This document shows, piece after piece, positions 6,199 to 62,994 of a DNA stretch of 64,000 bases (its first letter is position 1; each line of letters begins with the position of its first letter). The position numbers were made by a program, and so were the translations under genes. Source of the DNA: an uncultured Alphaproteobacteria bacterium (GTDB lineage: Bacteria; Pseudomonadota; Alphaproteobacteria; Rhizobiales; Beijerinckiaceae); contig CAWKON010000008.1 in NCBI GenBank assembly GCA_963851225.1, positions 56,653 through 120,652 of the forward strand, in the 5' to 3' direction. The notes under the pieces are model-generated. The model did not search any database and was not told the origin of the DNA. It saw only the letters and a program-made list of their open reading frames with translations.

Positions 6199-7858
6199 AT
6201 GGTTCACCTTGAACTTCTGTACAAGCCTGCCGCGATCAGCCGCGGGAAGCGGACGGTAGACTGGTCGTCGTCTCAAATCGCGTGCCTTTGCCGTCATCCT
6301 CGGTGGCGCCTGCGGCCGGTGGACTTGCGGTCGCGCTGGAGGCGGCGCTCAAGGCGCAGCGGAGGCCTCTGGTTCGGCTGGTCGGGCAAAACCAGCGAGG
6401 AGGGCGGGCCTCCGCTCCAATGCAGGACTGTTGGATCGCTCACCTATGCGGTATGCGACCTTTCGCGCCGCGATATCGAACAATATTATTGCGGCTTCGC
6501 CAACCGGACGCTTTGGCCGATTTGTCATTATCGCCTCGACCTCGCCAATCTGTCGGAATGCAACGCCGCCGCCTATTTCCGGGTGAACGAGCAATTTGCC
6601 CGTCAACTCCATAAGCTGCTGCGTTGCGATGATATTATTTGGGTGCATGATTATCATCTCATTCCCATGGCGCGTTTTCTGCGCCAGATGGGCTGCGCCA
6701 ACCGGATCGGTTTTTTTCTGCATATTCCCTGGCCGGGGCCGGAAGTCGCCAGCGCTTTGCCCGCCTATCAGCGGATCCTGCGCTCGTTTGGAGCCTATGA
6801 TGTCGTTGGTTTTCAGACCGAGACCGACGCCGGTAATTTCCGTGAATGCATCGTGAGCGCCAATGTCGGGCCGAGTTGCCGGTGGCGATTGGTGCGAGAT
6901 CGACGGCCGCCGGATGCAGGTCAGCGCGTTTCCAATCGGCATCGACAACGAGGCCTTCGCGCAAGAGGCACGTGCCGCCGAAAAAAATAGCACGGTCAAA
7001 CGCATGCTCGCGAGCCTCGATGGCCGCGACCTCGTCATCGGCGTCGATCGGCTTGACTATTCAAAGGGCTTGAGACAGCGCATGGCGGCGTTCGCGACTT
7101 TCCTCGAGCGTTCGCCGCAAGCGGCGCGGGCGCGCGTGACGATGCTGCAAATCACGCCAAAATCGCGCTCGGAAGTTCCCGAATATGCCCGTATGCAACG
7201 CGAATTGGAGGAAGAAGTCGGCCGCATCAATGGCAAACTCGGCGATGTCGATTGGACTCCGCTACGCTATATCAACAAATCCATGAGCCATTCGGTCCTC
7301 GCCGGACTTTATCGCATGTCCCGCATCGGCCTCGTCACGCCCTTGCGCGACGGCATGAACCTCGTCGCCAAGGAATATGTGGCGGCGCAAGCGCCAGATA
7401 ATCCCGGCGTGCTCGTCTTGTCGCAATTCGCCGGCGCCGCCCATGAACTAAAAAGCGCCTTGATCGTGAACCCCTACGATATCGAAGCCACCGCCGCCGC
7501 CATCGCGCGCGCCTTCGCCATGCCGCTCGGAGAACGCAAGGACCGATGGAACTCCTTGATGGCGGTGCTTCGCGCAAATAGCGTCCACGATTGGGCGTCC
7601 CATTTTCTTCAGGCTCTGGGCAATGAATACGAAAGCGGGGAGTTCGACAGGGCGCTGGACGGAGCCGGGTTTCCAGGGTCCGCCGGCTTGGGCCGGCTTA
7701 ACGCGATCGGAGCCGCTCCGCGCCGCGCTCCTATGTTCGTTCTTGATCAACCTGGGGCAGAAAGCCCAATTGAGCGAGCGCAGTTTCGCAAGGTCCTCCC
7801 TTTTTCACTGGTTTCGAGCATTGCGCGCGTACCTGCGCCCGGTCACTCGCTGGAATGA
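6199..7858 (+). pseudogene. otsA: alpha,alpha-trehalose-phosphate synthase OtsA, split over three reading frames (>=3 frameshifts near 6200-6260, ~6360 and ~6880)
   Basis: The N-terminus (RLVVVSNRVPLPSSSVAPAAGGLAVALEAALKA) is in frame 3. The middle (GGLWFGWSG...IIWVHDYHLIPMA...NRIGFFLHIPWPGPE...GFQTE) is in frame 1. The C-terminus (ERLDYSKGL...[20 protein letters not shown]...[13 protein letters not shown]) is in frame 2. The whole is collinear with E. coli OtsA. Confidence 0.85.
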
Positions 7859-7878
7859 GGCAAAGCCGCCGGCCACCG

Positions 7879-8637
7879 TTATGGAACTGACCCTCCTTCG
7901 TGACTCGCCAAAAGCAGGTGCAGCTCCGCCCGTACACTCGCCGGATCGGGCAGACGATAGCGTGCCTCGCTCGCAACGCCGGCGGGGCCTACCCGCACCG
8001 AAATTCCGCCTTGCGTATTGACAAACGAAAACCCGCTTTCGTCGGTCAAATCGTCGCCGATAAAGACCGGCTTGCGGCCGGAAAAAGGTGGCCTCGCCAG
8101 AAGGGCGGCGATGCCGTTGCCTTTGTCGTGGTGCACTTGCTTGAATTCGGCAACCATCTTGCCTTCCTGCACCGCAAGACCGGTTTGTCGCGCGAGGCTT
8201 TCGAGAAATTCCAACACTTCGCCTGCGAGTTCCGGCGTTTGCCTGAAATGCACCGCAAGTGCCGCACCTTTATCCTCCAGCATTAACCCCGGATGGGCCG
8301 CCATGAATTTCGCGAGAGGCAGCCGGACGCCATCCATCGCGACATCGGGCGGGCTTCCGCGTGACCTATCCGGAAACCGGACTTCCGCGCCATGCAGCCC
8401 GGCCGCGGCAAAAACGAGCGGCGCGAAAATACGATCGATGTCCTTGATCGTGCGCCCGCTGACGAGGGCAAGCGCCCCCCGTGTGGCACCGGCAAGCCCG
8501 GCGAGCAGCGTCCGTAATGGTTCATCTGCGATGACGTCCTCTGGGCGCGGCATAATTTCGAGGAGCGTGCCATCGGCATCGAGGAAATAAGCGCAGGAGG
8601 AAAGAGGCGCCATCCTCGCGAGATCGCCTAGCTGCAC
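7879..8637 (-). CDS. otsB: trehalose-6-phosphate phosphatase OtsB (HAD superfamily)
   Basis: Carries HAD motif I FLDADGTLLEI, GRT and a C-terminal GDDxTDE motif. It is convergent with otsA. Confidence 0.85.
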   Translation of the reverse strand: MQLGDLARMAPLSSCAYFLDADGTLLEIMPRPEDVIADEPLRTLLAGLAGATRGALALVSGRTIKDIDRIFAPLVFAAAGLHGAEVRFPDRSRGSPPDVAMDGVRLPLAKFMAAHPGLMLEDKGAALAVHFRQTPELAGEVLEFLESLARQTGLAVQEGKMVAEFKQVHHDKGNGIAALLARPPFSGRKPVFIGDDLTDESGFSFVNTQGGISVRVGPAGVASEARYRLPDPASVRAELHLLLASHEGGSVP

Positions 8638-8638
8638 C

Positions 8639-9079
8639 CTACCAAACCCCGGTGTTGGGCATGGACGTCCAGGGCTCGCGCTTTGGCAAGGGCGCGCCCT
8701 GTTGCAAAAGCTCGATTGAAATATTATCCGGCGAACGGATAAAGGCCATGTGCCCGTCGCGGGGCGGCCGGTTGATCGTGACGCCCGCCTTCATCAGTCT
8801 GTCACATGCCGCATAAATATCCTCTACGGCGTAAGCCAGATGACCGAAATTGCGGCCGCCGGTATAGTCCTCCTTGTCCCAATTATGGGTCAGCTCGATG
8901 AGCGGCGCCTGGAATTCCGTGGCGTGTTCCAAATCTCCCGGCGCGGCGAGAAACACGAGAGTGTAACGGCCGGCTTCATTCTCCATTCGCCGCATTTCGA
9001 CGAGCCCTAGCTTATTGACATAGAAATCGAGCGCTTGGTCAAGATCCGCGACACGGACCATGGTATGAAGAAATTCCAT
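8639..9079 (-). CDS. gloA: lactoylglutathione lyase (glyoxalase I)
   Basis: MEFLHTMVRVADLDQALDFYVNKLGL...IELTHNW...GHLAYAVEDIYAACDRL is collinear with E. coli GloA. The long ORF extension upstream of this Met is not supported by similarity. Confidence 0.8.
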   Translation of the reverse strand: MEFLHTMVRVADLDQALDFYVNKLGLVEMRRMENEAGRYTLVFLAAPGDLEHATEFQAPLIELTHNWDKEDYTGGRNFGHLAYAVEDIYAACDRLMKAGVTINRPPRDGHMAFIRSPDNISIELLQQGAPLPKREPWTSMPNTGVW

Positions 9080-9203
9080 TACTTTTCTCCAATTTGCCCG
9101 ACCGGGTGGCCGGGCAAACAAATGCCAAACATCCGTTCGCAATGTTATATAGCACTGAAGCGGGGCCGCGCCGCCTCTAGCGCGTGCTTGAGTTAACAAT
9201 TCG

Positions 9204-10624
9204 GTGAGCGCGCCATCTATGCCGGTAGAACGGGAAGCGACGATGAACGCGGCCGGCAGACTGAAAGAGCGCGCGGCGCTTGCTTCGATTGCGGTGAGTG
9301 CGTCGATGACCGCGGCAAAATTCGCCGCCGGGCTTGCCTCGGGGTCGCTCGCGGTGCTTTCCGAAGCTGGCCATAATCTCGCCGATGTGGCCGCCACCGC
9401 TCTCACCTATTTCGCTGTGAGGATCGCGAACAAGCCCGCCGACGAGGAACATCAATTCGGCCACGCCAAGGTCGAGGCATTGGCCGCTTTGGTCGAAACC
9501 GGCTTCCTGTTCGCGCTCGCCGTTTTTATCCTGATCGAAGCGATCGCACGGCTAGCAGGCCATGCCACGAAAATCGAGGCCAATTCTTTCGTCTTCGGTG
9601 TTTTGATTGCCTCGATCATCGTGGATTTGGCGCGTTGGCGTTCCCTGAAACGGATCGCCGCAACGACGAAAAGCGACGCGCTCGCCGCCGACGCATTGCA
9701 TTTTTCGAGCGATATCGTCAGCTCCGCCCTGGCGTTGTGCGGGATCACCGCCGCGCGTTACGGCTTTCCACAAGGCGACGCGCTGGCGGCCTTAGGGCTT
9801 GCGGTATTCATCGCGCGTGGCGGGCTGGCAGATTGGCCGGCGCACCGTCAACACTCTCGTTGACGCGGCGCCGAAGGGTCTTGCCTCGCAAATCAGGACG
9901 CTCGCGCAATCCGTTCCTGGCGTGGTCAAAGTCGAGACGCTCCGCCTGCGTCCGGCCGGAGCCGAGGTGTTCGGCGATATTGCCATCACCGTGTCGCGGA
10001 CCTTACCGCTTGAAAAAGCCGCCGCGATCGAGGCGAATGTCGCGGCGGCGATCGCGGCCCGGCATCCCGAGGTCGCCGTCACGGTCACGGCGCAGCCGGT
10101 CGCCCTCGACGACGAAACGATGCTCGAACGCATTCTTCTGATCGCGGCCAAACGCCGCGTTTCGATTCATCACGTCACCATTGCAGGAAATCGATGCGCG
10201 GACCGCGATCAGTTTCGACGTCGAACTCGACGGTCGTATGACGCATGGCAATGCACATGAGATCGTCTCTGGGCTCGAGAGCGAGATCGGCCGCGAACTC
10301 GGCCCCGGCATTGAAGTCGAAACCCATATCGAGCCGCTGGAACCGCGCCCATTGCAGGGTCACGACGCGCCTATGGAAATCACGCGCGGAAATCGCCCAT
10401 GCTTTCGCCAAAATGGCATCCCTAGCGGGACCAATTCGCGACGTGCACAGCGTCCGGGTGAGGACAACGCCGGACGGCCTGGTCGTCAACTACCATTGCC
10501 GGGTCAGCCCTTACCTCAGCGTCGACGAAGTGCACGAACATGTCGACGAGCTCGACCGGAAAATGCGCGCCGCTTTCCGGGCATCGTCAGAATCGTCGGC
10601 CACGCCGAGCCGTTGCGCGCATGA
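9204..10624 (+). pseudogene. cation diffusion facilitator (CzcD/FieF-like) metal efflux protein with C-terminal cytoplasmic domain; reading frame broken ~4 times
   Basis: The TM domain (SEAGHNLADVAATALTYFAVRIANKPADEEHQFGHAKVEALAA, HFSSDIVSS) is in frame 0. The C-terminal domain pieces lie in ORFs 9799.., 10181.. and 10245.. (VKVETLRLRPAGAEVFGDIAITV, HEIVSGLESEI, VHSVRVRTTPDGLVVNYHCRV). Confidence 0.75.
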
Positions 10625-10660
10625 GCGAAGATTTCGCCCGCGGCGCTGCCACCCTTTGCC

Positions 10661-11938
10661 ATGCTCGCTTCCCTGTTGCGGGCACGCCGCTTCGCGGGCT
10701 TGTTCTGGTGCCAGTTTTTTTCCGTCTTCAACGATAATTTCGTACGCAACATGCTCGCCATGCTGATCCTGTTCCGGCTCGGCGAAATTGGAGGCAGGCC
10801 CCCTGATCACGCTCGCGGTTGGCACGTTCATGGCTCCCTCGCTGTTTCTCTCCGGGCTTGGCGGCGAAATGGCGGACGCGCGATGACAAGGCGTGGCTTG
10901 CGCGGCGTCTCAAATTCGCGGAAATATTGGTTCAGACTGTCGCCGCCGCAGGGCCTCGCTCTCGCCTCGTTGCCGCTGCTTTATACCGCGCTTGTTCGGA
11001 CTTGGCGTGATCTCGGCTTTGTTCGGCCCGGTCAAATACGGTATTCTTCCCGACCTTCTCGCGAAACAGGAACTGCTCGCCGGCAACGCCCTCGTCGAGG
11101 CGGCAACATTCATCGCGATTTTTTTGGGGCTGATCGCGGGCGGCCTGTCCGCGAAGGGACGCGCGCCGGAAGGCACCGTTTTGCAGCTGATGGTCATTGC
11201 CATCGCTTGTTTCGCCGCCAGCCTTTTTATTCCCGCGGCAGCGCGCGCGGCGCCCGGTCTTCGCGCGAATCGCAATGTCTTCGCCTCCACCTTCGCGCTC
11301 CTGCGCGAGATCGCGCGAGACGCAACCTCTTTGGACACGCAGCGTGGCGGTCTCCTGGTTTTGGATGAGCGGCGCGGTGGCTCTCTCGCTGGTGCCGGTG
11401 GTCGTCCGCAACAAAACGGGAGGCGGCATCGAGGTCGAGACGGCGGTGAGCGCGCTCTTCGCGCTCGGCATCGGAACCGGCTCGCTTGCGGCGGCGGTAA
11501 TTGCCCGCGGGCGGATTTATTTGAAGCCGGTTCCGCTGGCCGCGCTCGGCATGGCGGCCTTTCTGATCGACCTCGGCGCCGCGACATTCTTCCTGCCGGT
11601 GGCAAAAGTTGAGGTGGGGCTTGCCGAATTTTTTTCATCTATGGCCGGGATCCGCATCGCCTGCGATGTCGCGGGGCTTGCCTGCGCCGGCGGACTTTTT
11701 GTCGTGCCTTTGTTTACCGCAATCCAGGCCGACGCGCCGAAAGACCGGCGCGCCGAGAATAGTCGGCGGCGTAAACATTTTAAATTCGGCTTTCATCGTT
11801 TTGGGGGTGCTCGCGACAGCCGTGCTGCAGAGCTCGCGCGTGGGCGTGACGGAGCCAGTGCTTCTCGCCGCGCTCGGCGTTTTGAACCTCGGCGCGGCGT
11901 TTTATGTGCGCAAGTCCGCGACGCAAGGCGTGGCCTGA
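10661..11938 (+). pseudogene. MFS transporter, lysophospholipid transporter LplT-like; split over >=4 frames
   Basis: The pieces MLASLLRARRFAGLFWCQFFSVFNDNFVRNMLAMLILF, FGPVKYGILPDLLAKQELLAGNALVEAATFIAIFLGL, LSLVPVVVRNK, GIGTGSLAAAVIARGRIYLKPVPLAALGM and RIVGGVNILNSAFIVLGVLA are consecutive but lie in different frames. Confidence 0.6.
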
Positions 11939-12207
11939 AGGCATACGTCCAGAGCGCGAAAATCGGTACGCATGATATTGAGAAGGGGCGCTGTTTTGAA
12001 ACGGAGCTGCCATTCGGCGACCGCCGCCTTGGCTGGAAAGCCGATACCCTCCGAACGTGAAATCGCCAACCCTGCCGCCTGCAGACGGCTTACGTGCGTT
12101 TGCGACCCCCGGCCTTGGGAGCACGGTAAACGACTGGAAATTGCTCCAATTTAACGAGTGGCCTTACCTTCTCCTGGCGAATTTTCTTGCTTACTGGAGG
12201 TTGCCCG

Positions 12208-12768
12208 CTATTGGGCGCGGACTCTGCGGCGCCAATCGGTCCAATCCACGATTTCAGAGGAAACAGTCTCTACGGCCGCACCAGGATCGAGATTCTCAAG
12301 CAGACCGACGAGGTTCATACTCGGGTGGCGTGCATTCGGTACGATCAGGGCATCAAACCCAAGGAACTGAGCAGCTGCGGCGATAGTCTGCGTAGCTGAA
12401 TAGTCGTAACTTTCGTACCGCCCGGTATTCACGCCGAGCCTATCGAGAGTCTGCAAGTTCGGAAGGCGCACGGCGCGCTCGGCGTGAATTGTCAACTCGT
12501 GCAGTTCGTGAACGAGCTTGCTCGGCCAGACCGGTTCCAGCGAGAGGCGGTGTGCGATTTCCGAGAGTGCGCCGTCGCGTTCGAGACTTGTGTAGAGCAC
12601 CTCGAATTCGCCTGTAGGGCTCCAGCGTCCATTGGCGGCGGATCCTCTAGCCGGGTTCCGGCCGCTGCGTATGATTCGCCATACTTGGCCGTCGAACGGT
12701 TGCGCGCCGATATCTTCAAGGGCGTCCAGTACAACCTTGTCGTGAACCCGCCGCCCCCGATCCCCCAT
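12208..12768 (-). CDS. RES-domain toxin (NAD+-targeting, MbcT/ParT-like)
   Basis: WRIIRSGRNPARGSAANGRWSPTGEFEVLYTSLERDGALSEIAHRL is typical of RES-domain proteins. The stop of the upstream antitoxin lies 1 nt from this ATG. Confidence 0.8.
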   Translation of the reverse strand: MGDRGRRVHDKVVLDALEDIGAQPFDGQVWRIIRSGRNPARGSAANGRWSPTGEFEVLYTSLERDGALSEIAHRLSLEPVWPSKLVHELHELTIHAERAVRLPNLQTLDRLGVNTGRYESYDYSATQTIAAAAQFLGFDALIVPNARHPSMNLVGLLENLDPGAAVETVSSEIVDWTDWRRRVRAQ

Positions 12769-12769
12769 C

Positions 12770-13108
12770 TCAGGTGTATGACCCCTGGTCCAAGCTCTCG
12801 ATAACTTCCAGCACCTTGTCGGTTCGTTGATCGTGGATCAGATCGATGGCACGTTGCCCGCCAAGGAGACGATGTTTCGCGTAAAGCCAGACCCGAATTT
12901 CTTCCGGGGTGTAAAGCTCCGATAACTGGTCCACCACGTATCTTAGGTCGGAGATGATTAGCTGCGTCTTCGGGTGCGGAAGTGCTGCCCCGGATGTCCA
13001 CCGAGATACGGTCGCCGGCGAAACGGCGGCGATGTTTGCAACATCCACGCCTTTCAATCCGCCCCGCTCTCGGAGGGTGTCGATGATTTGTGCGACCGCG
13101 CTAGTCAT
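12770..13108 (-). CDS. Xre-family antitoxin with DUF2384-type toxin-binding C-terminal domain (MbcA/ParS-like)
   Basis: N-terminal HTH (GVDVANIAAVSPATVSRW) and C-terminal VWLYAKHRLLGGQRAIDLI...VLEVIESLDQG motif. The start is taken at MTSAVAQII. Confidence 0.75.
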   Translation of the reverse strand: MTSAVAQIIDTLRERGGLKGVDVANIAAVSPATVSRWTSGAALPHPKTQLIISDLRYVVDQLSELYTPEEIRVWLYAKHRLLGGQRAIDLIHDQRTDKVLEVIESLDQGSYT

Positions 13109-13109
13109 G

Positions 13110-14398
13110 TCAGCGGCCCATGACCGCGTTGATTGAACTCGACCCACTCCGGAAGGTAAGCGGTCTGGATCGTGTCGGCTCGCAATCTCTTGCTTGAAGA
13201 TCGCCCAACGCGTCGCGCAGCCTGATCAGGCGCTTCTTCGCATCCAAGACGAGCTTGACGACTTTCTCATCGGGCAACTTAAGCTGGGTAATTTGGCGAG
13301 CCGACCTGACGGCAGGATCTATGTGACGTAGCACCAGATGCTCCGCACGACACGGTTCAGGCACTCGCGAGAGATCTTCGAGCTGGTGACTACGCCGGGT
13401 CAACATATGCGCGTCCGAATGCTCGATCTGATCTTCGCGACGGGGGCAGCAGCTGGTGTCCGTACAGCCGACACGTGGCTTTCCCCCTTTCACCGCGAAC
13501 ACCGCGTTAAGTTGTTCTTCGGTGAGATATCGATCGAGATCAGGAATGTAAATCCGAGTTCCAAGCCCTCCGCCTCCACTTGATTGAGGCCGTTTCCACT
13601 GATTAGCTTGAAAGCTCTCCTTTTGACAGACGCCGTGGCTGATACCCGCGACGGCTCCGAACGCAGCAGCAGCGAGCCCTGCGAAACCGCCGGCCGCGTC
13701 TGCGACCAACGGCCGCCCGGTCGCATGAAGGTCTCGGACGGACTGATATATGCCCGAGTGCCAGCTCCGGTCGCGGTCGCCCCAAACCCAGAAATCTTTA
13801 GCCAAACATTTTGGATGGGAAGATTTTCCACGACAGAGATGATTTTCTCACGCCCTCTCGGATCTCGAAGCAGGCTATTAGATGTGATCACTTGGTAGTC
13901 AATCGCGATGCCAGAGCCGCCATTCCGGTCGAGCTCCAGTCGCAACGCATCACAGAGTGTGCGATCAACGGCCCACCAATCGTCGTCCAATGTCTCGACG
14001 AGGTTGCTGGGAGCCAGCACTGCATCGACGCCGTGTTTGATCGCGAATTCTGCGATGAGACGGGCAGGGTTGAGATTGCTTCTGCGGCCGAAATCACTCG
14101 CTTTCCACGGAGTGTCCGCGTTGGCCCACGGCAGCTTCCTCACGCTGGAATCAAAGCCGCCAACTGTCGCCATCTCGGCAAAATTCGGATCCAGAACGGT
14201 CTCGCAACCGCTCGTCTTTAGTGCCTTAAGCAGCTCGATCTGTTTACCAATGTGTCCAGCGTCAAATACGAATTTATTAAACCTCAACTTTCCAGAAGCA
14301 TGCAGCGCTTCAATCCTGCGATGGCCCGTATGTCCGATTCGAAGGAATCCGCCAATGACAGAGGGCTGGGGGTGAAGGACGTGAACAGTGGCGACCAT
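13110..14398 (-). CDS. hypothetical ~430-aa protein, first gene of the Xre/RES operon (one frameshift ~13500-13800); C-terminal Cys cluster GCTDTSCC
   Basis: Two overlapping ORFs (13490..14398 and 13110..13805) read through collinearly. The stop overlaps the antitoxin start by 1 nt on the same strand. No domain is recognisable by eye. Confidence 0.5.
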
Positions 14399-14706
14399 GT
14401 TAATCTCCTGACCAAGCGATTATGTACGTTTTTGTTGCACAAATGTCAAGATATGAAACAAAAACGTAGACATCTCACCGTGCCAGCGTGACCGAGTTGT
14501 CCCACTTCGCCGCCGGTACAAGACGAGCCTTGATGGCCAAGTGCGGGGGAGGCGACACGAAAATGCTATTTTTGAATGGCTCAATGGGAAACGGAGCATC
14601 CACGCGATGAAACTGAAACGGGTGTCGTCAGCGAACTCGCGCACGGGACATCCTCGGCTATTTGCTACCCCTGGCGGCGCGGTTTTCGAGATGGAGGCGA
14701 GGTAAA

Positions 14707-16038
14707 ATGGCGGCCTTTGACGAGCTCATTCAGGAAATCGACCAGCGGTTCTCTCTCGGGCCAAAGGCCAATCTGCTTGTTCAAGAGATAGCCGGCTTAA
14801 TCACCGGACAGCCGGGCGGTATGGAAAGCTTCCTCGATAAGTTCAAGGCCGCCGGTTTCGCCACCGAGGTTAATTCCTGGTCGGCTGGAACTGAGATTGT
14901 CCCGCTTTTGGGACAAGAGGTAGAGCAGACGCTAGGCTCCGACACGATTAGCGAGATTGCCAAAAAAGCCGACATTAGCCAAAGCTTTGCTAGAACGATT
15001 ATGGGCGATGCAATACCCAAAATCGTCGTCCTGCTGGCAAAAGGCGAAGCAATCCCTCCCGCCGTTCCTGCTTCGGAATCGCTTGCCCTCGACTCGGCCA
15101 TCCCGCTTCCATCTTCCCCAGTCGAGGAAATCACGCAGCCTTCCCCCGTCGAGGAAATCACGCAGCCCGTAGCAGAGCAAATTCGACCGAGCATAACGGA
15201 CCGCTTTGCCGCAGCCCCGCAAAAACCGACGCCGCGCTTCAAGCAGCTTTTCCGCTATGGTTCCCGCGCGGCCCTGGCCACCGGTCTTTTTGGGATCGCG
15301 TGGTTGGCAGGGTCGTATTATTCCGGTGAACATTGGCCCTTTGACGCCATTAAGGCCCCGCCTGCCGCGACGCAAGAGAGTTTGGCGCGTACGGAGATGC
15401 TCCGCGCGACGCAAGAAATAACCGAGGACATCCGGGGTCTCAAAGCCGACGTAGAGGCCTTGCGCGCCGCGCAGAGCCAGTCCGGGAATGATGCCACCGC
15501 GCTCGAGGGCCTGAAGACGCGTCTGGATGCGGTGAAGGCCGAAACTGGCTCCTCGATCGCCGAGCTTACGAGTAAGGTCGAGAGCTTGCAGCGCGAGCCA
15601 GAGGCGAACCTGTCCCAAATTGTCGAGCGGCTCGACCGCATTGAGCACCAGATCGCGGGATCGCCCACGACCGCATCGATCGGCGCCACCGCCGCCCCAG
15701 GAAAGGCGGCCGCCGGAATTGCGGCGCAACAAAGAAAAATAGGCGGCCGCGGCGACGCGTTCGATCCGTCCAAAAATCCAACTGCCCCCGGAGCTCCCCA
15801 CCCGCTGGGTAGCCTTGCATCGGCGAGCACGCCGCATTTGCTCACGAATTGGGTTGTCCGTGATGTTTACAATGGGATTGCTCTCGTCGAGAGTCCGCGT
15901 GGCTCAATCGAGGTCTCGCCGGGAGAGATCATCCCTGGCGCGGGCACGGTGCAATCGATCGAAAGGCGCGGCGCCGGCTGGATTGTGATCACGAGTCGCG
16001 GCCTTATCGATTCCGACCGCACTAGTTTCCATCCCTGA
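14707..16038 (+). CDS. YidB/DUF937 N-terminal domain protein with PVEEITQ tandem repeat, one TM helix, coiled-coil region and C-terminal beta-rich domain
   Basis: The N-terminus (LDKFKAAGFATEVNSWSAGTEIVPLLGQEVEQTLGSDTISEIAKKADIS) matches the DUF937 pattern. A hydrophobic segment (ALATGLFGIAWLAGSYY) follows. A heptad-like region precedes a repetitive C-terminus. The RBS is GAGGTaaaATG at 14707. Confidence 0.6.
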   Translation: MAAFDELIQEIDQRFSLGPKANLLVQEIAGLITGQPGGMESFLDKFKAAGFATEVNSWSAGTEIVPLLGQEVEQTLGSDTISEIAKKADISQSFARTIMGDAIPKIVVLLAKGEAIPPAVPASESLALDSAIPLPSSPVEEITQPSPVEEITQPVAEQIRPSITDRFAAAPQKPTPRFKQLFRYGSRAALATGLFGIAWLAGSYYSGEHWPFDAIKAPPAATQESLARTEMLRATQEITEDIRGLKADVEALRAAQSQSGNDATALEGLKTRLDAVKAETGSSIAELTSKVESLQREPEANLSQIVERLDRIEHQIAGSPTTASIGATAAPGKAAAGIAAQQRKIGGRGDAFDPSKNPTAPGAPHPLGSLASASTPHLLTNWVVRDVYNGIALVESPRGSIEVSPGEIIPGAGTVQSIERRGAGWIVITSRGLIDSDRTSFHP

Positions 16039-50089: not shown

Positions 50090-50104
50090 CACGATGCTCC
50101 CGGC

Positions 50105-52788: not shown

Positions 52789-53916
52789 ATGCATTATTTG
52801 CGCGCTGCTGTCGCCCTGGTGGCGGCTATGACATTCTCAATGACGGCCCTTGGCGAGAGGCGTACGGCCATTGCGGTATTCACAGGGCCGAGCGGCGGCG
52901 TCGCGCCGCCGGACGGTGCACCGCCCTGTGTCTCGACGTTCTGCACATCGATACCAACAAGATACAAAAACACGTTCATTATCGGCATAACGGAGTACGA
53001 GACGACCTACCCTTGCTTTTACATAGATCATGGCCAGTGGACTCCGGGAACCAACATCCAACCTATTGACAAAGGAACGCCTGCTGGGACGGTAGACGTT
53101 TCGGAATTGGCTATCGTAGGTCCAACACCGCCCGGATGCACTGCTGCAGGGGGGCCGTATTTGTATGCTCCGCTTTATTTTGATTGGACCCTTCACAAGA
53201 ATTTAACCTGGTATTTAGGTTACGGCCCAACGGCTTTCTTTCAATCGAATTGGTATACAAAGGACGGTTGGAATTTGCCGTACTCGTTCCAGATTACCGT
53301 GCCGGTAGTGCGTCCAATTGGCGAGACAATCTCGTTTAAGGGTTTTACGGGGGTTATCGGTAACGGCTTAGTAGGCCAATGGCTACAGACACTCACGCCG
53401 CCGACCGACGATCCGAGTTTCGATTTTACTGGAGAGACTGTCCAAGAGGATTTATCCGCTTCTATTGGCAACTGCCTATCTCCACCCGCCAAACTGGTCC
53501 CCCTAGCAGGCACGACAAGGCCCCCTAGTACTTTCCCGGTAGAGAATGGCCCGCCCGGCCAATGGGTTGACGGGGTCGGCTTCGGTGACGAAGCTGATTC
53601 AGCATGTGCCGTTCTATATAATTTCTGCTATCAGCCATCGGGTTGTTTGATGACCAGAACGCAAACGACGGCCATAAAGTCCGACGCCGATTTCGCTGAT
53701 GCCTTTACCAAGTATGGCGGCGTCAACCGCTTGACGGCAGGTCTGCTTGGCAGAATCCTACCAGTCGCCCTGCCATTCCAAAGCCCACAAGGTTTCGGCA
53801 GGATTTTCTCAAGTCGACAATCCACCGAATCCCTAAGCAGTCAATCAGTCAAGAGCAACTTAACTCTAATCTCCACGTCCGTTTGCAAAAATCTTGTTCT
53901 GACGAACTGCAAATAG
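52789..53916 (+). CDS. cassette copy 1, large secreted Cys-rich protein (375 aa; signal MHYLRAAVALVAAMTFSMTALG), unknown family
   Basis: Shares with copies 2 and 3 the signal peptide and the motifs IGITEY, VRPIGET, PPTDDPxFDFTGET and NGPPG. The rest has diverged. Confidence 0.8.
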   Translation: MHYLRAAVALVAAMTFSMTALGERRTAIAVFTGPSGGVAPPDGAPPCVSTFCTSIPTRYKNTFIIGITEYETTYPCFYIDHGQWTPGTNIQPIDKGTPAGTVDVSELAIVGPTPPGCTAAGGPYLYAPLYFDWTLHKNLTWYLGYGPTAFFQSNWYTKDGWNLPYSFQITVPVVRPIGETISFKGFTGVIGNGLVGQWLQTLTPPTDDPSFDFTGETVQEDLSASIGNCLSPPAKLVPLAGTTRPPSTFPVENGPPGQWVDGVGFGDEADSACAVLYNFCYQPSGCLMTRTQTTAIKSDADFADAFTKYGGVNRLTAGLLGRILPVALPFQSPQGFGRIFSSRQSTESLSSQSVKSNLTLISTSVCKNLVLTNCK

Positions 53917-54289
53917 ATGTTGATTACAATTGTTAGAGTCTGTCCGGAAACATCCAGCCGGATTGCAAGGTTTCCGGAGCATGAGGCGAATTGAGGCGAG
54001 GCGCGAGCAATCTGAGTGCCCTCCCGATTGAGGATCTTCCATTCATGGCCTGATCTTGGCCTGCAATGAATGGCGGAATCCGACCTGATGACGTTGTCCC
54101 CAAGTTTGATCCAGGCGCGACTACAATACCGTGCGGCCACGTTCTCGTATCGGCAGGCTGAGGTCAGCCCGCCCATGCCGCCCAATTCTCACCGCAACGG
54201 GCCAAGGCGCTACGCTGCTCGATGGCTCCGCGCCCTGGCCCGTTGCTATGTCTGGACCCAAATGTAAGCCCGTCCTGCCCCTGTGCGGA

Positions 54290-54411
54290 TCTTCCTGCGA
54301 AGCTCTAGGTGGTCACACAGCATAAAAATTTACCCAATTGGGAGCTGTCTTGCGATCCGGATTGGCATAACCTCCTCCGTGTTCCCCGCATGGAGGAAGA
54401 GGAGGTTAGTC
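54290..54411 (+). promoter_or_regulatory. conserved cassette leader, copy 2, with SD-sequestering hairpin (AACCTCCTC 54369-77 pairs with GAGGAGGTT 54399-407)
   Basis: A 9-bp perfect stem occludes the Shine-Dalgarno sequence 6 nt upstream of the ATG. The anti-SD arm is absent from copy 1. Confidence 0.45.
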
Positions 54412-54909
54412 ATGTCGGATGGCCATCAGGATTGCAGCGAGGCAAGGTCTTCGCTCCACGGCGAAGCCAAACGCTATTTTTCACGCGGGCTTATCCTAAG
54501 AGCCTTAGCCGCGAGTTTCGCGGCCTGTGCGATGACCTTGCCGGCCCTGGCCCAGCTGGCTGCGCCCGTGTATGTCACGGGGTCTGCCGCCGCTACAATT
54601 ACGGTCACTTTCACGGTGGCTCCTCCTGCAGCGTCCACCGTTTCTTGTGGCTTGTCGTTGATCAGCAACGATCCACGTACCCCGGCCGACAGCTCAACCG
54701 TAACCGTCACGGTGACGGGTTCGACCGCGATCTGTACAGTAACGGTGAACTATAGATGGCGCCTTACGAGCACGAGCGTTTCCACGGATACGATGACGAT
54801 TGCTTATTCGGTTCAGGGGCCGGTTCAGAACAGCTTTGGCCTTGTCAACATCATTCCAATGCCCGCCAACGGCACGCATTTAAGTCAGAGTTTCGGTGTC
54901 ACGCAGTAA
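54412..54909 (+). CDS. cassette copy 2, small secreted protein (165 aa), paralogue of 52237..52734
   Basis: MSDGHQDCSEARSSLHGEAKRYFSRGLILRALAASFAACAMTLPALAQLAAPVYVTGSAAATITVTFTVAPP... Confidence 0.8.
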   Translation: MSDGHQDCSEARSSLHGEAKRYFSRGLILRALAASFAACAMTLPALAQLAAPVYVTGSAAATITVTFTVAPPAASTVSCGLSLISNDPRTPADSSTVTVTVTGSTAICTVTVNYRWRLTSTSVSTDTMTIAYSVQGPVQNSFGLVNIIPMPANGTHLSQSFGVTQ

Positions 54910-54948
54910 TCAGGCGTCGAGGGGCAATCCGAGGTTGAGGTAACTTCC

Positions 54949-56040
54949 ATGCATTATTTGCGCGCTGCTGTCGCCCTGGTGGCGGCCGTGATGTTTTCAC
55001 TGAGTGCCGCTGGCCAGGCGCCTCCGGCCGCTAAAATCGGGTCGACCTCCGGCAAGGCGGTGGCCATCCGGGCATTGTCCCCGAACCCAGTGGGCGGCAT
55101 CAATCCTTTGGCCGGCACCATGGTGAAACGACAAACGGAAACGTTCATAGCGGGCATCGCGGAGATCAATCCTGATACCTGCGCATTTATAAATTCTGGC
55201 TCGTGGACCTTCACCCTGAATCCAACGTTTGGGAAGACCACCTGGAGAGTTGAATCTGGCACGTCAGCAACGGGTCAACCATGTGCTGGCCATACATATA
55301 ATTTTGCTAAAATATTTTACACGTGGACCGCTCATAACAATCACACCACAACGCCAAATCAAGGACCAACTGATATTTTTAACGCGACTTGGACGACCCC
55401 TGACGGGATGTTTAACGATCCGTTCGTGTTCAATATTATTACGAATCCAGTGCGTCCAAAGGGCGAGACCACTGCATTGCAAAGTTGGCAAGACTCCTTT
55501 GGTATATGGAAGGTAACGCTCGTATGCTGCGCCCCGCCAGATGATGACGATGCGGCGTTCGATTTCACGGGCGAAACGGTGAACGAGGTTTTCCTAAGTG
55601 ACCAAAACTCGTGTCCAGGTAACGCATCCGTTAACCCGAGCATGGGAACAGTAAATAATGGACCACCAGGTAGTTTTCATGACAAAATTGGGTTTGATCC
55701 GTGCGTCGTACATTATGCTCGATGTTTAATGAAAGCTGGTTGTGGGTTCGTAGTTAAGCAGCAGATGGAAATAAATTCTCCAGCAGATCCAGCTAATACA
55801 TTTTTTTCTTATGGAACTGCGCCAAATACTTTGAGTTCAAGAGTTGAGGGTGGTATTATCGTCAATCTTGCCGGCAAGTTGACCTCTAGGAGCGGGGTAG
55901 GCCAAATAACATCTCAAAGGAGCACGCCCCTAAGCCCGTTCACTCCGGCGCACCATGACTTTCCGAGCGACAAAGCTTCGTGTTTTGCGAAAGCCCAGGA
56001 TCTTCAGTTCTACCTAGCGATGCTAGATAAACGATGCTGA
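54949..56040 (+). CDS. cassette copy 2, large secreted Cys-rich protein (363 aa), paralogue of 52789..53916
   Basis: The signal peptide MHYLRAAVALVAAVMFSLSAAG and the motifs VRPKGET, PPDDDDAAFDFTGET and NGPPG are conserved. Otherwise it is <35% identical by eye. Confidence 0.8.
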   Translation: MHYLRAAVALVAAVMFSLSAAGQAPPAAKIGSTSGKAVAIRALSPNPVGGINPLAGTMVKRQTETFIAGIAEINPDTCAFINSGSWTFTLNPTFGKTTWRVESGTSATGQPCAGHTYNFAKIFYTWTAHNNHTTTPNQGPTDIFNATWTTPDGMFNDPFVFNIITNPVRPKGETTALQSWQDSFGIWKVTLVCCAPPDDDDAAFDFTGETVNEVFLSDQNSCPGNASVNPSMGTVNNGPPGSFHDKIGFDPCVVHYARCLMKAGCGFVVKQQMEINSPADPANTFFSYGTAPNTLSSRVEGGIIVNLAGKLTSRSGVGQITSQRSTPLSPFTPAHHDFPSDKASCFAKAQDLQFYLAMLDKRC

Positions 56041-56099
56041 GTCCAAACGGTCAGACGGGTAGCGGGAGCGTCACGGGGGAAAATCTTAAGCGATGGTGG

Positions 56100-56455
56100 A
56101 CGGAACCGCTTTAGCGGGATCTCCCCACGACCCCTGTTGGAAGGAACAGCCTTCCGAAAGGATGGCGGCCATGTCCTGGATTACAAAATAAACTGCCAGA
56201 TAAAGCTTTGGTATGAACCTGCCGCACGGGCGCTTGATCGCCGGCCGGCCAGAGCAACGCGCCATTCATTTCAAGGCGGCGATTTGGAGCCAGACCCGCC
56301 TCGCCGATCATGTTTGACATCCAATGAATGGCGGAATCTGGCCTCGGCCGAAGCGCCATCGGACATGTGCGAGCGCCGGTCTTACAGATTGAACGAGAGA
56401 TTACCGTGTGCTGTCTCGTAAGGTTTTGGCCGACAATCGTATCAAAATGCGGGCC
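56100..56455 (+). repeat. ~350-bp conserved non-coding repeat 3' of cassette copy 2 (copies also at 58380..58733, partial at ~54040-54085)
   Basis: Shared blocks CCCCACGACCC, TCCGAAAGGAT and TTGACATCCAATGAATGGCGGAATCTGGCCTCGGCCGAAGCGCCATCGGACATGTGCGAGCGCCGGTCTTACAGATTGAACGAGAG, ending ..CAATCGTATCAAAATG. Confidence 0.6.
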
Positions 56456-56575
56456 TTCCTGCGAAGATCTAGGTAGTGAAGCAGCATAAAAATTTACCCA
56501 ATTGGGAGCTGTCTTGCGATCCGGATTGGCATAACCTCCTCCGTGTTCCCCGCATGGAGGAAGAGGAGGTTAGTC
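56456..56575 (+). promoter_or_regulatory. conserved cassette leader, copy 3, with SD-sequestering hairpin (56533-41 with 56563-71)
   Basis: Identical to the copy-2 leader over ~115 nt. Confidence 0.45.
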
Positions 56576-57073
56576 ATGTCGGATGGCCATCAGGATTGCA
56601 GCGAGGCAAGGTCTTCGCTCCACGGCGAAGCCAAACGCTATTTTTCACGCGGGCTTATCCTAAGAGCCTTAGCCGCGAGTTTCGCGGCCTGTGCGATGAC
56701 CTTGCCGGCCCTGGCCCAGCTGGCTGCGCCCGTGTATGTCACGGGGTCTGCCGCCGCTACAATTACGGTCACTTTCACGGTGGCTCCTCCTACGGGGTCC
56801 ACTGTTTCTTGTAACCTGGCGTTGGTCAGTAATGATCCGCGCGCGCCGTCCGACAGCGCCTCCGTTACCTCGACGGTGAGCGGCTCGACCGCGACCTGTG
56901 TAGTAACGCTGAACTACAGATGGCGCCTCACGAGCACAAGCCTCTCCACGGATTTGATGACGATTGGTTATTCGGTCCAGGGGCCGGTTGCGACCAGCTC
57001 GGGACTTGTCAACATCATTCCAATGCCGGCCGACGGTACGCATTTGAGTCAGAGTTTCGGGGTCACCCAGTAA
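56576..57073 (+). CDS. cassette copy 3, small secreted protein (165 aa)
   Basis: The N-terminal half is identical to copy 2. The mature region is closer to copy 1 (APPTGSTVSC...NYRWRLTSTSLSTD). Confidence 0.8.
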   Translation: MSDGHQDCSEARSSLHGEAKRYFSRGLILRALAASFAACAMTLPALAQLAAPVYVTGSAAATITVTFTVAPPTGSTVSCNLALVSNDPRAPSDSASVTSTVSGSTATCVVTLNYRWRLTSTSLSTDLMTIGYSVQGPVATSSGLVNIIPMPADGTHLSQSFGVTQ

Positions 57074-57125
57074 TCGGGCGTCGAGTACTAATCCGAGGTT
57101 TCTAATCGGGACGGAGCTAACTTCC

Positions 57126-58349
57126 ATGCATTATTTGCGCGCTGCTGTCGCTCTCGTGGCGGCTATGACGTTCTCTTCAATGGCTTTTGGCGAGACGCGT
57201 CCGGCGATTGCGATATTCTCGGCGCCGGATGGCCCTAGGGCGCTAGCCATCGAACCCTCAAACACCCCCAGTTCGGCCACCTACTCCACAAGCATTGCAA
57301 GATATACCCCCGTGCCCACGTTGATTATCGGCATAACCGAGTACGATCCATTGAACTGCAAATGGCTAGATTTGGCAAGTGGACCGACCCCAACTCGTCT
57401 CTTAAACCTGTATTCAAAGGGAAGCCTGCTGGGCCGGTAGGCTACCAGAGAACTTTTGCAGGCACATTACCGAGCACCACGCCTTGCCCTGGACTGGCAG
57501 TTACTTATCTCGCAATAGATTTTTCGTGGATGGCTCATTACAATCAAACCGGATTAGGATCAGGCGTTGCTCCACCTCCATGTAAAACAACAAATCCAGT
57601 GTGCCCAACGGCTGTTTTTCAAGGAGAATGGACCACGAAGGACAAAATGTTTGATATAGTGTACAGCTTCCAAGTTAGCGTGGATGTGGTGCGTCCAATT
57701 GGCGAGACGACTAACTGGCAGGGTTGGTCGGGATGGTTCGGTAGCGGCCTCGTGGGCCAATGGGCGGCGACGCTCAAGCCTCCAACCACAGATCCGGATT
57801 TCGATTTTACAGGGGAGACGACACAAGAAAGATTTTCTAATAAAAAAGACACCTGCGCTCTTAAAACGACTACAAAAAATAACATTCCACTGGGAAACGT
57901 AACAAGTCCCGGCAAGAACTTTCCGGTAATGGATGGCCCGCCTGGTAAGTATATTGACGGAGTTGAGCGTCGGTGGTGACGATCCGCAATCAGTATGTTC
58001 CGTACTCTGTCATTTCATCACAAATCCAGCTGGTTGCTTTCTCTCAGTACAGCAGCAGATGAGCATTATGTCCCCGGCCGATACGGCCTTTGTCAAATAT
58101 CCCGCCGTTAATATCCTCGAAGCTGGCAGCATCGGCTCAATCACCTCCGCGTTCCTAGTCCTAAAGCCCTCACAAGGCCACGCCACCGTAACATCAAATC
58201 GCTATCCCATTTCTGGCCCACGCCCTGAACCAATGAGCCATCCAAGCGGCGATCTCGACCTGAGCAATTGTACTAGTATTAGGATTCCTCTTCCTACTAA
58301 ACCTGTTACTTCTAGAAACTTTAATTTTCCCCAAGATTGTAGTAAATAG
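57126..58349 (+). pseudogene. cassette copy 3, large secreted Cys-rich protein, reading frame broken twice (~57400, ~57960)
   Basis: ORFs 57126..57440, 57362..57979 and 57933..58349 are consecutive. Conserved motifs include IGITEY, VRPIGETTNWQGW, PPTTDPDFDFTGET and DGPPGKYIDGV. Confidence 0.7.
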
Positions 58350-60431: not shown

Positions 60432-61000
60432 ATGTTCACAAGATACAGTTTCCCACAGCGCTATAGTCCAGCTGCTCAGTTTTTTTCCACTGGAGTTCCG
60501 TGCTGCTCGTCGGCTTTGCTTGGGTGGTAGGAGACTTTGGTGATGACCTGCCGAAAGGCAGCTTCCGTGAACTCGGCGAATTCATCCACGTCTCAGCCGG
60601 ACAATTAATTGTCGCTTTGCTCGTAATGCGTCTCGTGTGGCGCGTAATCACTCCGCCGCCACTACCAGAGGCGACGCCTCTGGGACTATGGACAGATCGT
60701 GGCGGCAGGGTCATGCATTTTATGCTTTACGCGCTGCTTGCGGCAGTCCCGATTGCGGGCATCGTGACGCTGTTCGCGGGCGGTGATGGCTTGCCGCTGT
60801 TCGGCTACGGCGAAATTCCTTCGCCTTGGCTCAAAGACGAGGCGTTCGAACAAAACGCCAAGGAAATCCACGAGACGTTGGCAAATGCGCTGATTATTTT
60901 AGCGATGTTCCACGCAAGCGCGGCACTTGTCCATCATTTTTATTTCAAGGACAGAACACTTAAACGAATGTTGCCCAGCGGTTTCGACAAGCACGCGTGA
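60432..61000 (+). CDS. cytochrome b561 family protein (CybB-like), frameshift in a T7 run at ~60472
   Basis: MFTRYSFPQRYS (frame 0) then FFHWSSVLLVGFAWVV... (frame 2) reproduces the CybB N-terminus M..KYS..Q..HW. His ligands in the TM helices. Restoring T8 in cagtttttttcc gives QFFFHW. Confidence 0.7.
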
Positions 61001-61218
61001 CGAGGCTGCCACAACCACCGTTGTGGAACGGTGCTTTTTTGTTGATTTATGACACAGAGTCTTGCGCGGCTGTTCCCTTCAGCCCAGTGTCGCCTTTATG
61101 CATCACAAGCTGGCATGACGAGAAACGCTTGTACGACGAAACGCCTTTCTGGCCCTCGGCCAGTGATATTCTCCGGGACTGGGCCGCGCGCGTGGCAGAT
61201 GCAGTTCGCTGCGGCACA

Positions 61219-61870
61219 ATGATCGAACACACCGCCTTCCCTATTGATCCGGTGCTGTTTTACACCTTTTTGATTGCTGCCGTGCTGATCGAAATCACGC
61301 CGGGCCCGAACATGGCCTATCTGGTCACATTAGCGATGACGCGCGGTCGCACCGCCGGATTGGCGACGGTCGCTGGAATTACGATCGGCCTTGCGGTCTA
61401 TATGGTGACGGCGGCCTTTGGCCTCACCGGAATTTTTTTGCTCTACCGTCCTGCCTATGACGCATTGCGCTTTCGCTGGCGTCGCGTATTTACTCTGGCT
61501 CGCCGTAGAAACTTGGCGTAGCGCGGATGGCGGCGAAGCCGGCGATTTTACGGAATTGTCCTGCCCGCAATTTGCGATGCGCGGCTTTCTCATCAACATT
61601 CTTAATCCGAAAGCCGCGGTGTTCTACATCGCGTTGCTGCCCTCTTTTATCCAAGCCGAACATGCCGGGCCGCGCACACAGGCGCTGCTGTTGGGCTCTG
61701 TTCACATTGTTATCAGCATCGCCGTGCATCTGTTGCTGGTTCTGCTCGCAGTAAGGCTCGGCGGCTTCGTCGCCATGGGCACCGGAGGCTCCGTCCTTAT
61801 GCGCCGGATTTTTGCGGTGCTGTTGGCGGGCGTGGCGGCGTCGCTGACCTATGAGACGAGAGCCGTTTGA
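61219..61870 (+). CDS. LysE/RhtB-family amino-acid exporter, frameshift near 61450
   Basis: N-terminal block LIEITPGPNMAYLVTLAMTRGRTAGLATVAGITIG. C-terminal half LINILNPKAAVFYIALLPSFI... is in ORF 61418..61870. Confidence 0.7.
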
Positions 61871-62084
61871 ACACGAATTGAGCGCTCTGGCCGTATACGC
61901 GCAAGCCACATAAGATCATGTGTTCATGGTCGGCCTACTCTGACGACCGCTCCCGTTCTTGGCAGCCATTTGGATGATGTCACCACGCATGACGCTTGAG
62001 GGCCTGTTCCAAAAGCCTCGCCCTAACGCTTAGAGACGACCTTTCAGGCCTCCTCAGAGTGAGGGCGAGGCTTTTGAACAGGGG

Positions 62085-62994
62085 CTAAGGATCGAAAAAA
62101 CCGGCGGGGATTTGGGCCGTGAGTTCTCGCCCGGCCGCTTCTCCGAGCGATGCCGCCTCGGCCACTGGCCCAGACACCGCTGTCTCGAAAAACCTCCGAA
62201 CCATCGGGCTTTAGCACGATGGCGTGAAAATCGACGTTGCCCGCTTCGACCCGCGCATGTGCGCCGATCGGCGTCTTGCAGGAGCCATCGAGAACCCTCA
62301 AAAATGCGCGCTCCGCCGTAAGTGCCATCCCCGTTACCGCGTCGAGAACCGGGGCAAGGAGTGCCCGCGTGGAATCGTCGCTGGTCCGAATAGTGATGGC
62401 AATCGCGCCCTGACCCGCCGCCGGAACAAATTCTCGCACGTCGAGCACGCTCGTTGCCGCCGCCTCGAGGCCGAGGCGCTTCAATCCAGCAAGCGCCAGT
62501 AGCGTGGCGGCAGCTTCCCCCTTCGCGACCTTGGCGAGGCGCGTCTCGACGTTGCCGCGCAACAGCGCGATCTGCAGGTCCGGCCGCAGCCGCTTGACCA
62601 TGGCAGCCCGTCGAAACGAAGCGGTGCCGACAATGCTGCCAGCGGGAAGCTTGAGCGGATGCGGTGCGTGCGAAGAAATCCATGCGTCGCGCACATCTTC
62701 GCGAGGAAGATAACCGCAGATTTCGATTCCCGTTGGTAAAAATGTCGGCAAATCCTTCGCCGAATGCACGGCCATTTCGATACTGCCGGAAGCCAAGGCA
62801 AGGTCGAGCTCCTTGGTAAAAAGCCCTTTGCCACCGGCTTCGCTCAACGGCACGTTGAGAAACATGTCGCCGCTGGTTTTGATGGTGGCGATCTCAATGG
62901 CCGCTGGATCGAGGCCATGCGCCGCCATGAGGCGATCCTTGAGCTCACGCGCCTGCGCCAGCGCCAAGGGGCTGCCCCGCGTCCCTAGTCTCAC
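62085..62994 (-). CDS. hemC: hydroxymethylbilane synthase (porphobilinogen deaminase), frameshift near 62180 affecting the last ~30 codons
   Basis: MRLGTRGSPLALAQA...AVHSAKDLP...GTASFRRAAMVKRLRPDL and the cofactor-binding Cys region. The true C-terminus VSGPVAEAASLGEAAGRELTAQIPAGFFDP* is in an alternate frame ending at 62085. Confidence 0.8.

Follow-up and report, generated by a model that had tools for sequence, protein, structure and literature searches.

The window analyzed here is a 64,000-nucleotide (nt) stretch of contig CAWKON010000008.1 (positions 56,653 to 120,652 of the forward strand; GenBank assembly GCA_963851225.1) from an uncultured alphaproteobacterium of the family Beijerinckiaceae, with a G+C content of 58%. 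Between 3.8 and 63 kb, ∼20 conserved genes of this window are split across reading frames by ∼53 frame-breaking events. These breaks are very probably consensus errors in an unpolished long-read contig from a metagenome-assembled genome (MAG) of a Methylocella-like bacterium, and the affected genes are almost certainly ordinary and intact in the organism itself. An earlier note on this DNA, made from the sequence alone, had preferred sequencing errors to gene decay; that preference is borne out by intact orthologs, the lack of nonsense codons, purifying selection, the presence of several lesions in single genes, and the absence of four of five testable insertions from near-identical contigs.

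Orthologs of the Split Genes Are Intact in Relatives

From 3.8 to 52.7 kb, apart from insertion sequence (IS) elements and one small island, the window is collinear with three relatives: contig_41187, a 314,632-bp European Nucleotide Archive (ENA) contig of assembly ERZ25039497 (loci L006, L013, and L014); DATBQJ010000152.1, a contig of an Illumina/megahit Methylocella sp. MAG (loci L001/L007); and one contig of the MAG MFD06714.bin.2.130 (locus L002). Their nucleotide identity to the window is 93 to 96%, and this together with the collinearity identifies the organism as a Methylocella-like member of the Beijerinckiaceae. The window was aligned, one gene at a time, to 26 reference genes (27,858 bp of coding sequence), all of them uninterrupted in the relatives; event coordinates are given as window positions throughout, with +1 denoting a base inserted in the window and −1 a base missing from it. 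Scoring of open reading frames (ORFs) by codon usage or G+C content at third codon positions alone was too weak to tell sense from antisense ORFs, and a free Viterbi gene finder, which fused adjacent genes and over-called shifts, served as a guide only.

Thirteen of the 26 compared genes are broken: GH15, otsA, the CDF transporter, the MFS (lplT-like) gene, the M32 carboxypeptidase, DUF1801, the DyP peroxidase, copA, aat, ybjQ, hslU, trpS, and pepF. The density of frame-breaking events in the compared coding sequence is 1.6 per kb (45 events in 27,858 bp). A multiheme cytochrome-TPR gene is also broken, by two insertions. For every comparable gene, the orthologs are full length in the three relatives (94 to 97% identity), the Illumina MAG included. 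Five further genes have no close reference (a porin-like gene, the third copy of a cassette large protein, cytochrome b561, a LysE-type exporter, and hemC); their breaks were confirmed by frame analysis, Pfam matches of stitched proteins, a truncated HemC domain, and tblastn with paralogs. When the frames are stitched, OtsA, CDF, M32, DyP, b561, and LysE each give one end-to-end Pfam match that spans the junctions.

Orthologous alignment, frame analysis, Pfam, and paralogs show that all 18 genes named as split in the earlier note are indeed split, and its counts for individual genes (three breaks in otsA, four in CDF, and three in hslU) are correct. The genes that it described as uninterrupted (sulfatase, IS21, encapsulin, AI-2E, helicase, and ThiC) are all intact. 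Its statement that trpS is affected stands, although the gene has four breaks rather than the single one described; GH15 is an additional broken gene, whose break at 3853 lies outside the range covered by the note.

Gene calls in the public record (National Center for Biotechnology Information and ENA) on the 178,275-bp source contig give the same fragments as the truncated products of the window, including a 166-residue M32 product (P0001), a cytochrome-TPR protein in two pieces of 643 and 140 residues (P0241 and P0362), and a 331-residue piece of OtsA (P0368). The window copies this contig faithfully, and the frame breaks are thus part of the deposited record. The possibility that the window had been corrupted by design (planted or synthetic errors) was considered and is ruled out by these identical fragments.

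Inserted Bases Are Not Linked to Homopolymers

One-base indels in the compared genes comprise 52 insertions and 14 deletions (binomial p = 3e-6), accompanied by one 2-nt insertion and two in-frame deletions of 9 and 45 nt. Relative to contig_41187, the latter two lie at 15355 and 15729 in a YidB-like gene (14707-16038) whose product is of low complexity and rich in Ala and Pro, and they resemble natural variation in length. Insertions and deletions form ten pairs or triplets with members no more than 20 nt apart, and in most of these the frame is regained. With each group counted as one event, 45 frame-breaking events are obtained (38 of +1, 3 of +2, and 4 of −1), corresponding to 41 net insertions vs. 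4 net deletions; for the whole window the tally is ∼47 net insertions vs. 6 net deletions, or ∼8:1.

The inserted base is unlike both of its neighbors in 36 of the 52 cases, compared with 54% for random insertion. It extends a run of one base in 12 cases and a run of two in 3, while a single insertion (1/52, the change of A3 to A4 in trpS) extends a run of at least three, for which random insertion gives 4.7%. The compared reference genes include 76 homopolymers of 5 nt or longer, all of which are free of indels. A search of the insertion sites for GATC, CCWGG, GCGC, other palindromes, and all 3- to 6-mers found no significantly enriched motif.

The earlier note had favored homopolymer miscalls, as made by 454, Ion Torrent, or uncorrected Nanopore sequencing, as the source of the breaks and had proposed tabulating indels against homopolymer length. 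That tabulation reveals no link, and the two homopolymers cited in the note are the exceptions. The trpS break does sit in an A4 run where A3 restores the frame, and the Illumina relative reads AAA at this position; in cytochrome b561, the interval of the −1 event includes the T7 run, and the suggested restoration by T8 is plausible, though reference-free. These two sites, with the few events that extend runs of two, are what favors homopolymer miscalling. Against it stand the 36 of 52 added bases that match neither neighbor, the single extension of a longer run (no more than expected at random), the 76 long homopolymers free of indels, and a T7 run at 61433 in the LysE gene, which is read in frame with the break ∼40 nt further on. 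In addition, insertions exceed deletions by 4:1 to 10:1, where deletions would be expected to be at least as common in a Nanopore consensus. We consider homopolymer-length miscalls (454, Ion Torrent, or uncorrected R9-type Nanopore) a very unlikely main cause of the breaks. The platforms deduced from that mechanism fall with it, the 52:14 ratio being the opposite of a homopolymer-deletion signature.

Broken Genes Show No Sign of Relaxed Selection

With the indels removed and the reference frame followed, ∼5,600 codons of the 13 broken genes contain no in-frame stop. The ratio of nonsynonymous to synonymous differences per site (pN/pS) is 0.135 in these 13 genes and 0.171 in the 13 intact ones, and 71% of the differences in the broken genes are at third codon positions. 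Over 40-52.7 kb, where the window, the Illumina MAG, and L002 were compared together, 70% of the substitutions private to the window in broken genes are likewise at third positions; outside pepF, private changes at first and second positions are no denser in broken than in clean genes of this region. There is thus no sign of relaxed selection. Random substitution errors accompanying the indels were considered as well and are ruled out by the same predominance of third positions among private substitutions.

Up to seven lesions occur in a single 1.3-kb gene, and the essential trpS has four. Genes that carry four to seven frameshifts each, trpS among them, without relaxed selection cannot be old pseudogenes. 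Recent and extensive pseudogenization, through relaxed selection with IS expansion or through a frameshift mutator, would make the indels real; several IS elements are present in the window, the breaks exist in the deposited record, and an insertion at 29768 is common to the window and an independent contig, which also has a TAA codon at 29821. This explanation would nonetheless have to accommodate the lack of nonsense codons and of larger out-of-frame deletions, a pN/pS that is not raised in the broken genes, and the involvement of trpS. With four to seven indels per gene, one would also expect tens of neutral substitutions at all three codon positions alike, which are absent, and contigs of 99.3 to 99.5% identity lack four of the five testable insertions. 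Moreover, the known mutational bias in bacteria is toward deletion, opposite to the +1 bias in random context seen here. We regard recent pseudogenization as highly improbable. As to the view of the earlier note that some of the decay might be real, this is possible for single sites such as the shared 29768 insertion, but nothing positively supports decay.

If all of the insertions were real, an as yet undescribed insertion-biased mutation process or a tolerated recoding would have to account for dozens of recent +1 frameshifts, including those in trpS and hemC, which is extremely improbable. In a weaker version, at least the lesion at 29768 in the cytochrome-TPR gene may be a genuine frameshift at the population level. 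Programmed recoding, whether by +1 ribosomal frameshifting, bypassing, or RNA editing, could in principle tolerate extra bases. Nothing specific favors it, although one element in the window, the IS5-family transposase at 32951-33711, has a classical −1 slippery run. The affected sites have no motif in common (GANTC, GATC, and all 3- to 6-mers were considered), neither the relatives nor the near-identical contigs conserve them, and we know of no precedent in bacteria for as many as seven recoding sites in one gene. The probability of this explanation is negligible.

Near-Identical Contigs Lack Four of Five Testable Insertions

Run ERR11630394 provides four short contigs, assembled by Logan, that were compared with the window. 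L008 (window 8638-10029, 99.5% identity) is without the inserted C at 9816; L015 (43772-46140, 99.3%) is without the insertions at 43990 and 44375/7, leaving an intact YbjQ of 108 amino acids (aa); L016 (37492-38754, 99.9%) aligns without gaps over a clean stretch; and L017 (29254-30475, 99.5%) is without the insertion at 29817 and has the one at 29768. Four of the five insertions that can be tested in this way are therefore absent from near-identical sequence. The insertion at 29768 is either a systematic error at a site for the methyltransferase CcrM or the one real lesion of the set. L017 also reads TAA in place of CAA at 29821.

At six positions flanking 9816, the window differs from both L008 and the more distant L013, which agree with each other. 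Because five of the six are at third codon positions, these mismatches are real strain differences.

Frame-Breaking Events Cluster in Patches

The events are over-dispersed: 13 of the 26 compared genes are event-free, where 6.2 would be expected (P = 4e-5; chi-square Monte Carlo p = 0.019). Clean stretches of 2-5 kb, including 6.9-9.8, 18.1-21, 32-41.8, and 44.4-47.6 kb, alternate with dirty ones that carry an event every 100-500 bp. Mismatches to the near-identical Logan contigs follow the same division, with 14 in 912 bp of dirty and 3 in 4,112 bp of clean sequence (Fisher p = 1.5e-8, with boundaries drawn post hoc). A plausible account is that, where the assembled strain is identical to one that occurs with it, or where the sequence exists in several copies (as do the intact IS elements), ample concordant reads would yield a clean consensus; where the strains differ, low effective depth or a mixed pile-up could allow false insertions to survive.

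A Minority of Events Lies at GANTC Sites

GANTC is the target of CcrM in Alphaproteobacteria. In the compared genes, 5 of 59 GANTC sites have an indel within 3 nt, where 1.5 would be expected (∼3-fold, p = 0.019). The enrichment appears only when all indels are counted per motif site; GANTC is not enriched among isolated insertions. Individual sites recur in independent assemblies: a GAGTC site in copA is damaged in both the window and contig_41187 and is clean in the Illumina MAG, the alterations of GAATC sites in aat differ between the window and L015, and the insertion at 29768, common to the window and L017, falls in a GAATC of the cytochrome-TPR gene. A comparable case is provided by M32 homologs from another species (L009-L012; four non-syntenic contigs from three ENA assemblies, used for this M32 site comparison only), in all of which the gene is split at the same place. 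At this GAGTC-like site (position ∼1112), the four contigs show four indel states (+T, +T, +G, and −2), probably a systematic miscall linked to methylation.

Such observations suggest that ERR11630394 is itself long-read data, in which case the shared insertion at 29768 would be a systematic miscall and not a real lesion. A minority of the errors in the window may therefore be systematic miscalls at methylated GANTC sites, a component that covers roughly a tenth of the events. Methylation-linked Nanopore errors, GANTC included, are documented (PMC10687267, PMC12392509), and errors introduced by polishing are also on record (PMC12392509).

Events in the Individual Genes

The GH15 glucoamylase/trehalase-like gene (3847-5683, + strand) has an inserted A at 3853, in codon 3, relative to an intact 611-aa ortholog in L013; beyond codon 3 it is intact, with a 583-aa ORF that starts at a GTG further downstream. 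Downstream, otsA (6199-7858, +) carries −1 at 6250, +1 at 6358 and 6867, and a compensated −1/+1 pair at 6406/6416. Its ortholog P0121 is intact at 552 aa, and the stitched protein matches Pfam Glyco_transf_20 from 27 to 471 of 473 in one stretch. The CDF cation-efflux gene (9219-10624, +) has +1 at 9816, 10183, and 10380 and −1 at 10578, and the adjoining MFS (lplT-like) gene (10621-11938, +) has seven +1 events (10631, 10785, 10882, 10954, 10992, 11328, and 11753); both are intact in L013, encoding 467 and 436 aa, respectively. The M32 carboxypeptidase gene (16269-17920, +) carries +1 at 16356, 16889, and 17409 and −1 at 16720. Its L013 ortholog is intact at 549 aa, and the stitched product matches Pfam Peptidase_M32 over 2-489 of 489.

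The gene for an outer-membrane β-barrel, porin-like protein (25733-27527, − strand; Pfam OMP_b-brl) has one +1 near 27227, in a GC-rich (GGC)n stretch; this position is approximate, being derived from frames and sequence. In the multiheme cytochrome-TPR gene (27974-30315, +), +1 events occur at 29768, where GAATC becomes GAAATC, and at 29816/7; homologs, including P0361, are 780-791 aa long. DUF1801 (30364-30721, −) has +1 at 30590 and an intact 118-aa ortholog in L014. The gene for the DyP peroxidase, an encapsulin cargo (30975-32081, +), has +1 at 30986, 31498, and 31989; its L014 ortholog of 367 aa is intact, and the stitched protein gives full-length matches to Pfam Dyp_perox_N and Dyp_perox_C. 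DyP and the encapsulin (Linocin_M18) together occupy 30975-32887 (+) with a 4-nt gene overlap, a classic cargo-shell operon in which the encapsulin gene is free of errors and adjoins a DyP gene with three insertions.

The P-type ATPase gene copA (40982-43336, −) carries seven frame-breaking events, at 41793, 41868, 42148 (−1), 42237-42244, 42743, 43139, and 43235+43250; the event at 42237-42244 has a net effect of +1 and lies at the GAGTC site, and the ortholog in the Illumina contig (L007) is intact at 782 aa. An exact-pattern scan of Joint Genome Institute metagenome contigs across two of the copA insertion sites gave no match. The gene for the Leu/Phe-tRNA protein transferase, aat (43519-44197, −), has +1 at 43990, inside a GAATC, and a compensated pair at 43930/43937, with an intact ortholog of 225 aa. 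In ybjQ (44341-44668, +), the +1 falls at 44375-44377, and the 108-aa ortholog is intact in both L007 and L015. The hslU gene (47626-48939, +) carries +1 at 47719, 47954, and 48457 and a compensated pair at 48857/48874 (ortholog 436 aa, intact), and trpS (49051-50089, +) carries +1 at 49056-59 (A3 to A4), 49583, 49863, and 49872 and a compensated pair at 49312/49314 (ortholog 344 aa, intact).

The M3 oligoendopeptidase gene pepF (50105-51942, −) has seven frame-breaking events (50467, 50612-50629, 50976-50984, 51222 [+2], 51337, 51507, and 51891) in addition to compensated pairs; orthologs of 609-620 aa are intact. This gene is far more diverged from its relatives than its neighbors are (proportion of synonymous differences, pS, 0.29 vs. 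∼0.1), with 167 substitutions private to the window, mostly at third positions, and it may be a recombined allele.

Three tandem cassettes occupy 52237-58349 (+), each comprising a ∼165-aa and a ∼365-aa secreted protein with a near-identical signal peptide (MHYLRAAVALVAA...). The proteins have no Pfam match, the copies are 33-46% identical to each other, and a single such cassette was seen at the loci of relatives, compared with three in the window. The third copy of the large protein (57126-58349, +) has −1 near 57360-57375 and +1 near 57965-57975; tblastn with the two intact paralogs traces it through frames 1, 3, and 1. Cytochrome b561 (60432-61000, +) has one −1 between 60467 and 60487, for which the T7 at 60480-60486 is the likely site. 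The stitched protein, which has no close reference, matches Pfam Ni_hydr_CYTB over 8-178 of 179. The LysE-type exporter gene (61219-61870, +) has one +1 near 61470-61480 (CGCTTTCGCTGG), and its stitched product matches Pfam LysE over 5-192 of 193. Finally, hemC (62085-62994, −) has one +1 near 62166-62170, with the true stop at 62085; in the long ORF, the Pfam match to Porphobil_deamC is cut at 51 of 74.

Other Elements of the Window

In the IS5-family element at 32951-33711 (+), OrfA is a DUF4096 protein and OrfB, in the −1 frame, is a DDE protein; the overlap contains GAAAAAGGGGG at ∼33272-33282. This is the classical arrangement for programmed −1 frameshifting, and the transposase is the only genuine programmed frame change seen in the window. 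A RES toxin gene (12208-12768, −) is paired with an Xre-MbcA-ParS antitoxin gene (12770-13147, −) and adjoined by a two-frame ORF pair (13110-14398; 300 and 230 aa) that has no Pfam match; both pairs lie in an island (12000-14500) that is absent from the collinear contig_41187.

Discussion

The reading of the frame breaks as consensus errors implies that the consensus of the source contig carries ∼50 spurious single-base indels, nearly all of them one-base insertions at non-repetitive positions, which would split ∼20 otherwise functional genes. In keeping with an assembly artifact, the lesions are absent from near-identical sequence in four of five cases and from all relatives of 94 to 97% identity, and the genes otherwise look functional. 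The defining features of homopolymer error, of genuine pseudogenes, and of programmed frameshifting were not found, while those of methylation-motif Nanopore error, enrichment and recurrence at GANTC sites, were found for a minority of events.

The source would be a long-read-only soil metagenome assembly (Nanopore, Flye, and one round of Medaka), like its closest relatives in the ENA, which have Flye-style contig names and were deposited with the Microflora Danica (MFD) long-read catalog. The MFD long-read MAGs are Nanopore-only and were assembled with Flye --meta --nano-hq and a single Medaka round, and their authors report signs of Nanopore errors in MAGs of lower coverage (PMC12313526). 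Near-finished Nanopore genomes need ∼40× coverage (Sereika et al. 2022, PMC9262707), and in soil assemblies truncation by frameshifts is commoner with Oxford Nanopore Technologies (ONT) than with HiFi data (nanoMDBG evaluation, PMC13087279). Comparison of L006 with the Illumina locus L007 reveals the same kind of one-base, non-homopolymer insertion in a Flye-named contig, at lower density. The pattern recurs in sibling contigs and so looks like a signature of the pipeline. Contig_41187 also has breaks of its own (loci L013 19902-21343, L014 10001-12157, and L006 3959-6113), affecting the sulfatase, copA, the N terminus of the cytochrome-TPR protein, and a HAD hydrolase, all but copA being intact in the window; in its sulfatase (L013 19902-21343), the frame is lost where AAA is shortened to AA and CCC to CC (window 18482 and 19204).

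Several points weigh against consensus error. A strong insertion bias in non-repetitive context is no platform's textbook consensus signature, and there is no excess of random substitutions alongside the indels; an 8:1 preponderance of insertions outside repeats, with no substitutions to accompany them, is not predicted by any consensus-error model known to us. The insertion at 29768 is common to the window and the independent L017 and so could be real, and the contigs from run ERR11630394 themselves show suspicious changes. The sequencing technology behind the source contig is deduced from the data type of its relatives, and the clean and dirty boundaries in the strain-divergence test were set after the data had been seen.

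The fragments have practical consequences. Truncated OtsA, M32, cytochrome, and other products are already in public protein collections, and naive annotation of this MAG would report ∼20 pseudogenes, essential genes included. Homopolymer-aware correction tools target a different signature from the one seen here, context-free one-base insertions in patches that coincide with strain-variable stretches, plus GANTC sites. Most of the errors would escape such tools, but correction of frameshifts against a reference, or polishing with short reads, would remove them.

Among known systems, the closest likeness is to the frameshift truncations of Nanopore-only metagenomes, the problem addressed by IDEEL-type analysis (PMC9262707, PMC12313526, PMC13087279). 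Shared features are the one-base splits in a long contig with intact orthologs elsewhere, the Flye-named relatives in the ENA, and the truncated products in public protein sets. The errors in that literature are mainly homopolymer indels, whereas here the homopolymers are clean and context-free insertions occur in patches, in a contig whose technology is deduced. Modification-mediated Nanopore errors (PMC10687267, PMC12392509) resemble the present case in the 3-fold enrichment of GANTC and in the same sites being hit differently across assemblies; published examples are mostly substitutions, while those described here are indels and make up ∼10% of events. Pseudogene-rich genomes of recently host-restricted or IS-expanded bacteria likewise combine many split genes with several IS elements. 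The window differs from them in having no nonsense codons, no raised ratio of nonsynonymous to synonymous substitution rates (dN/dS), and no deletion bias, with an essential gene among those affected and near-identical sequences free of the lesions.

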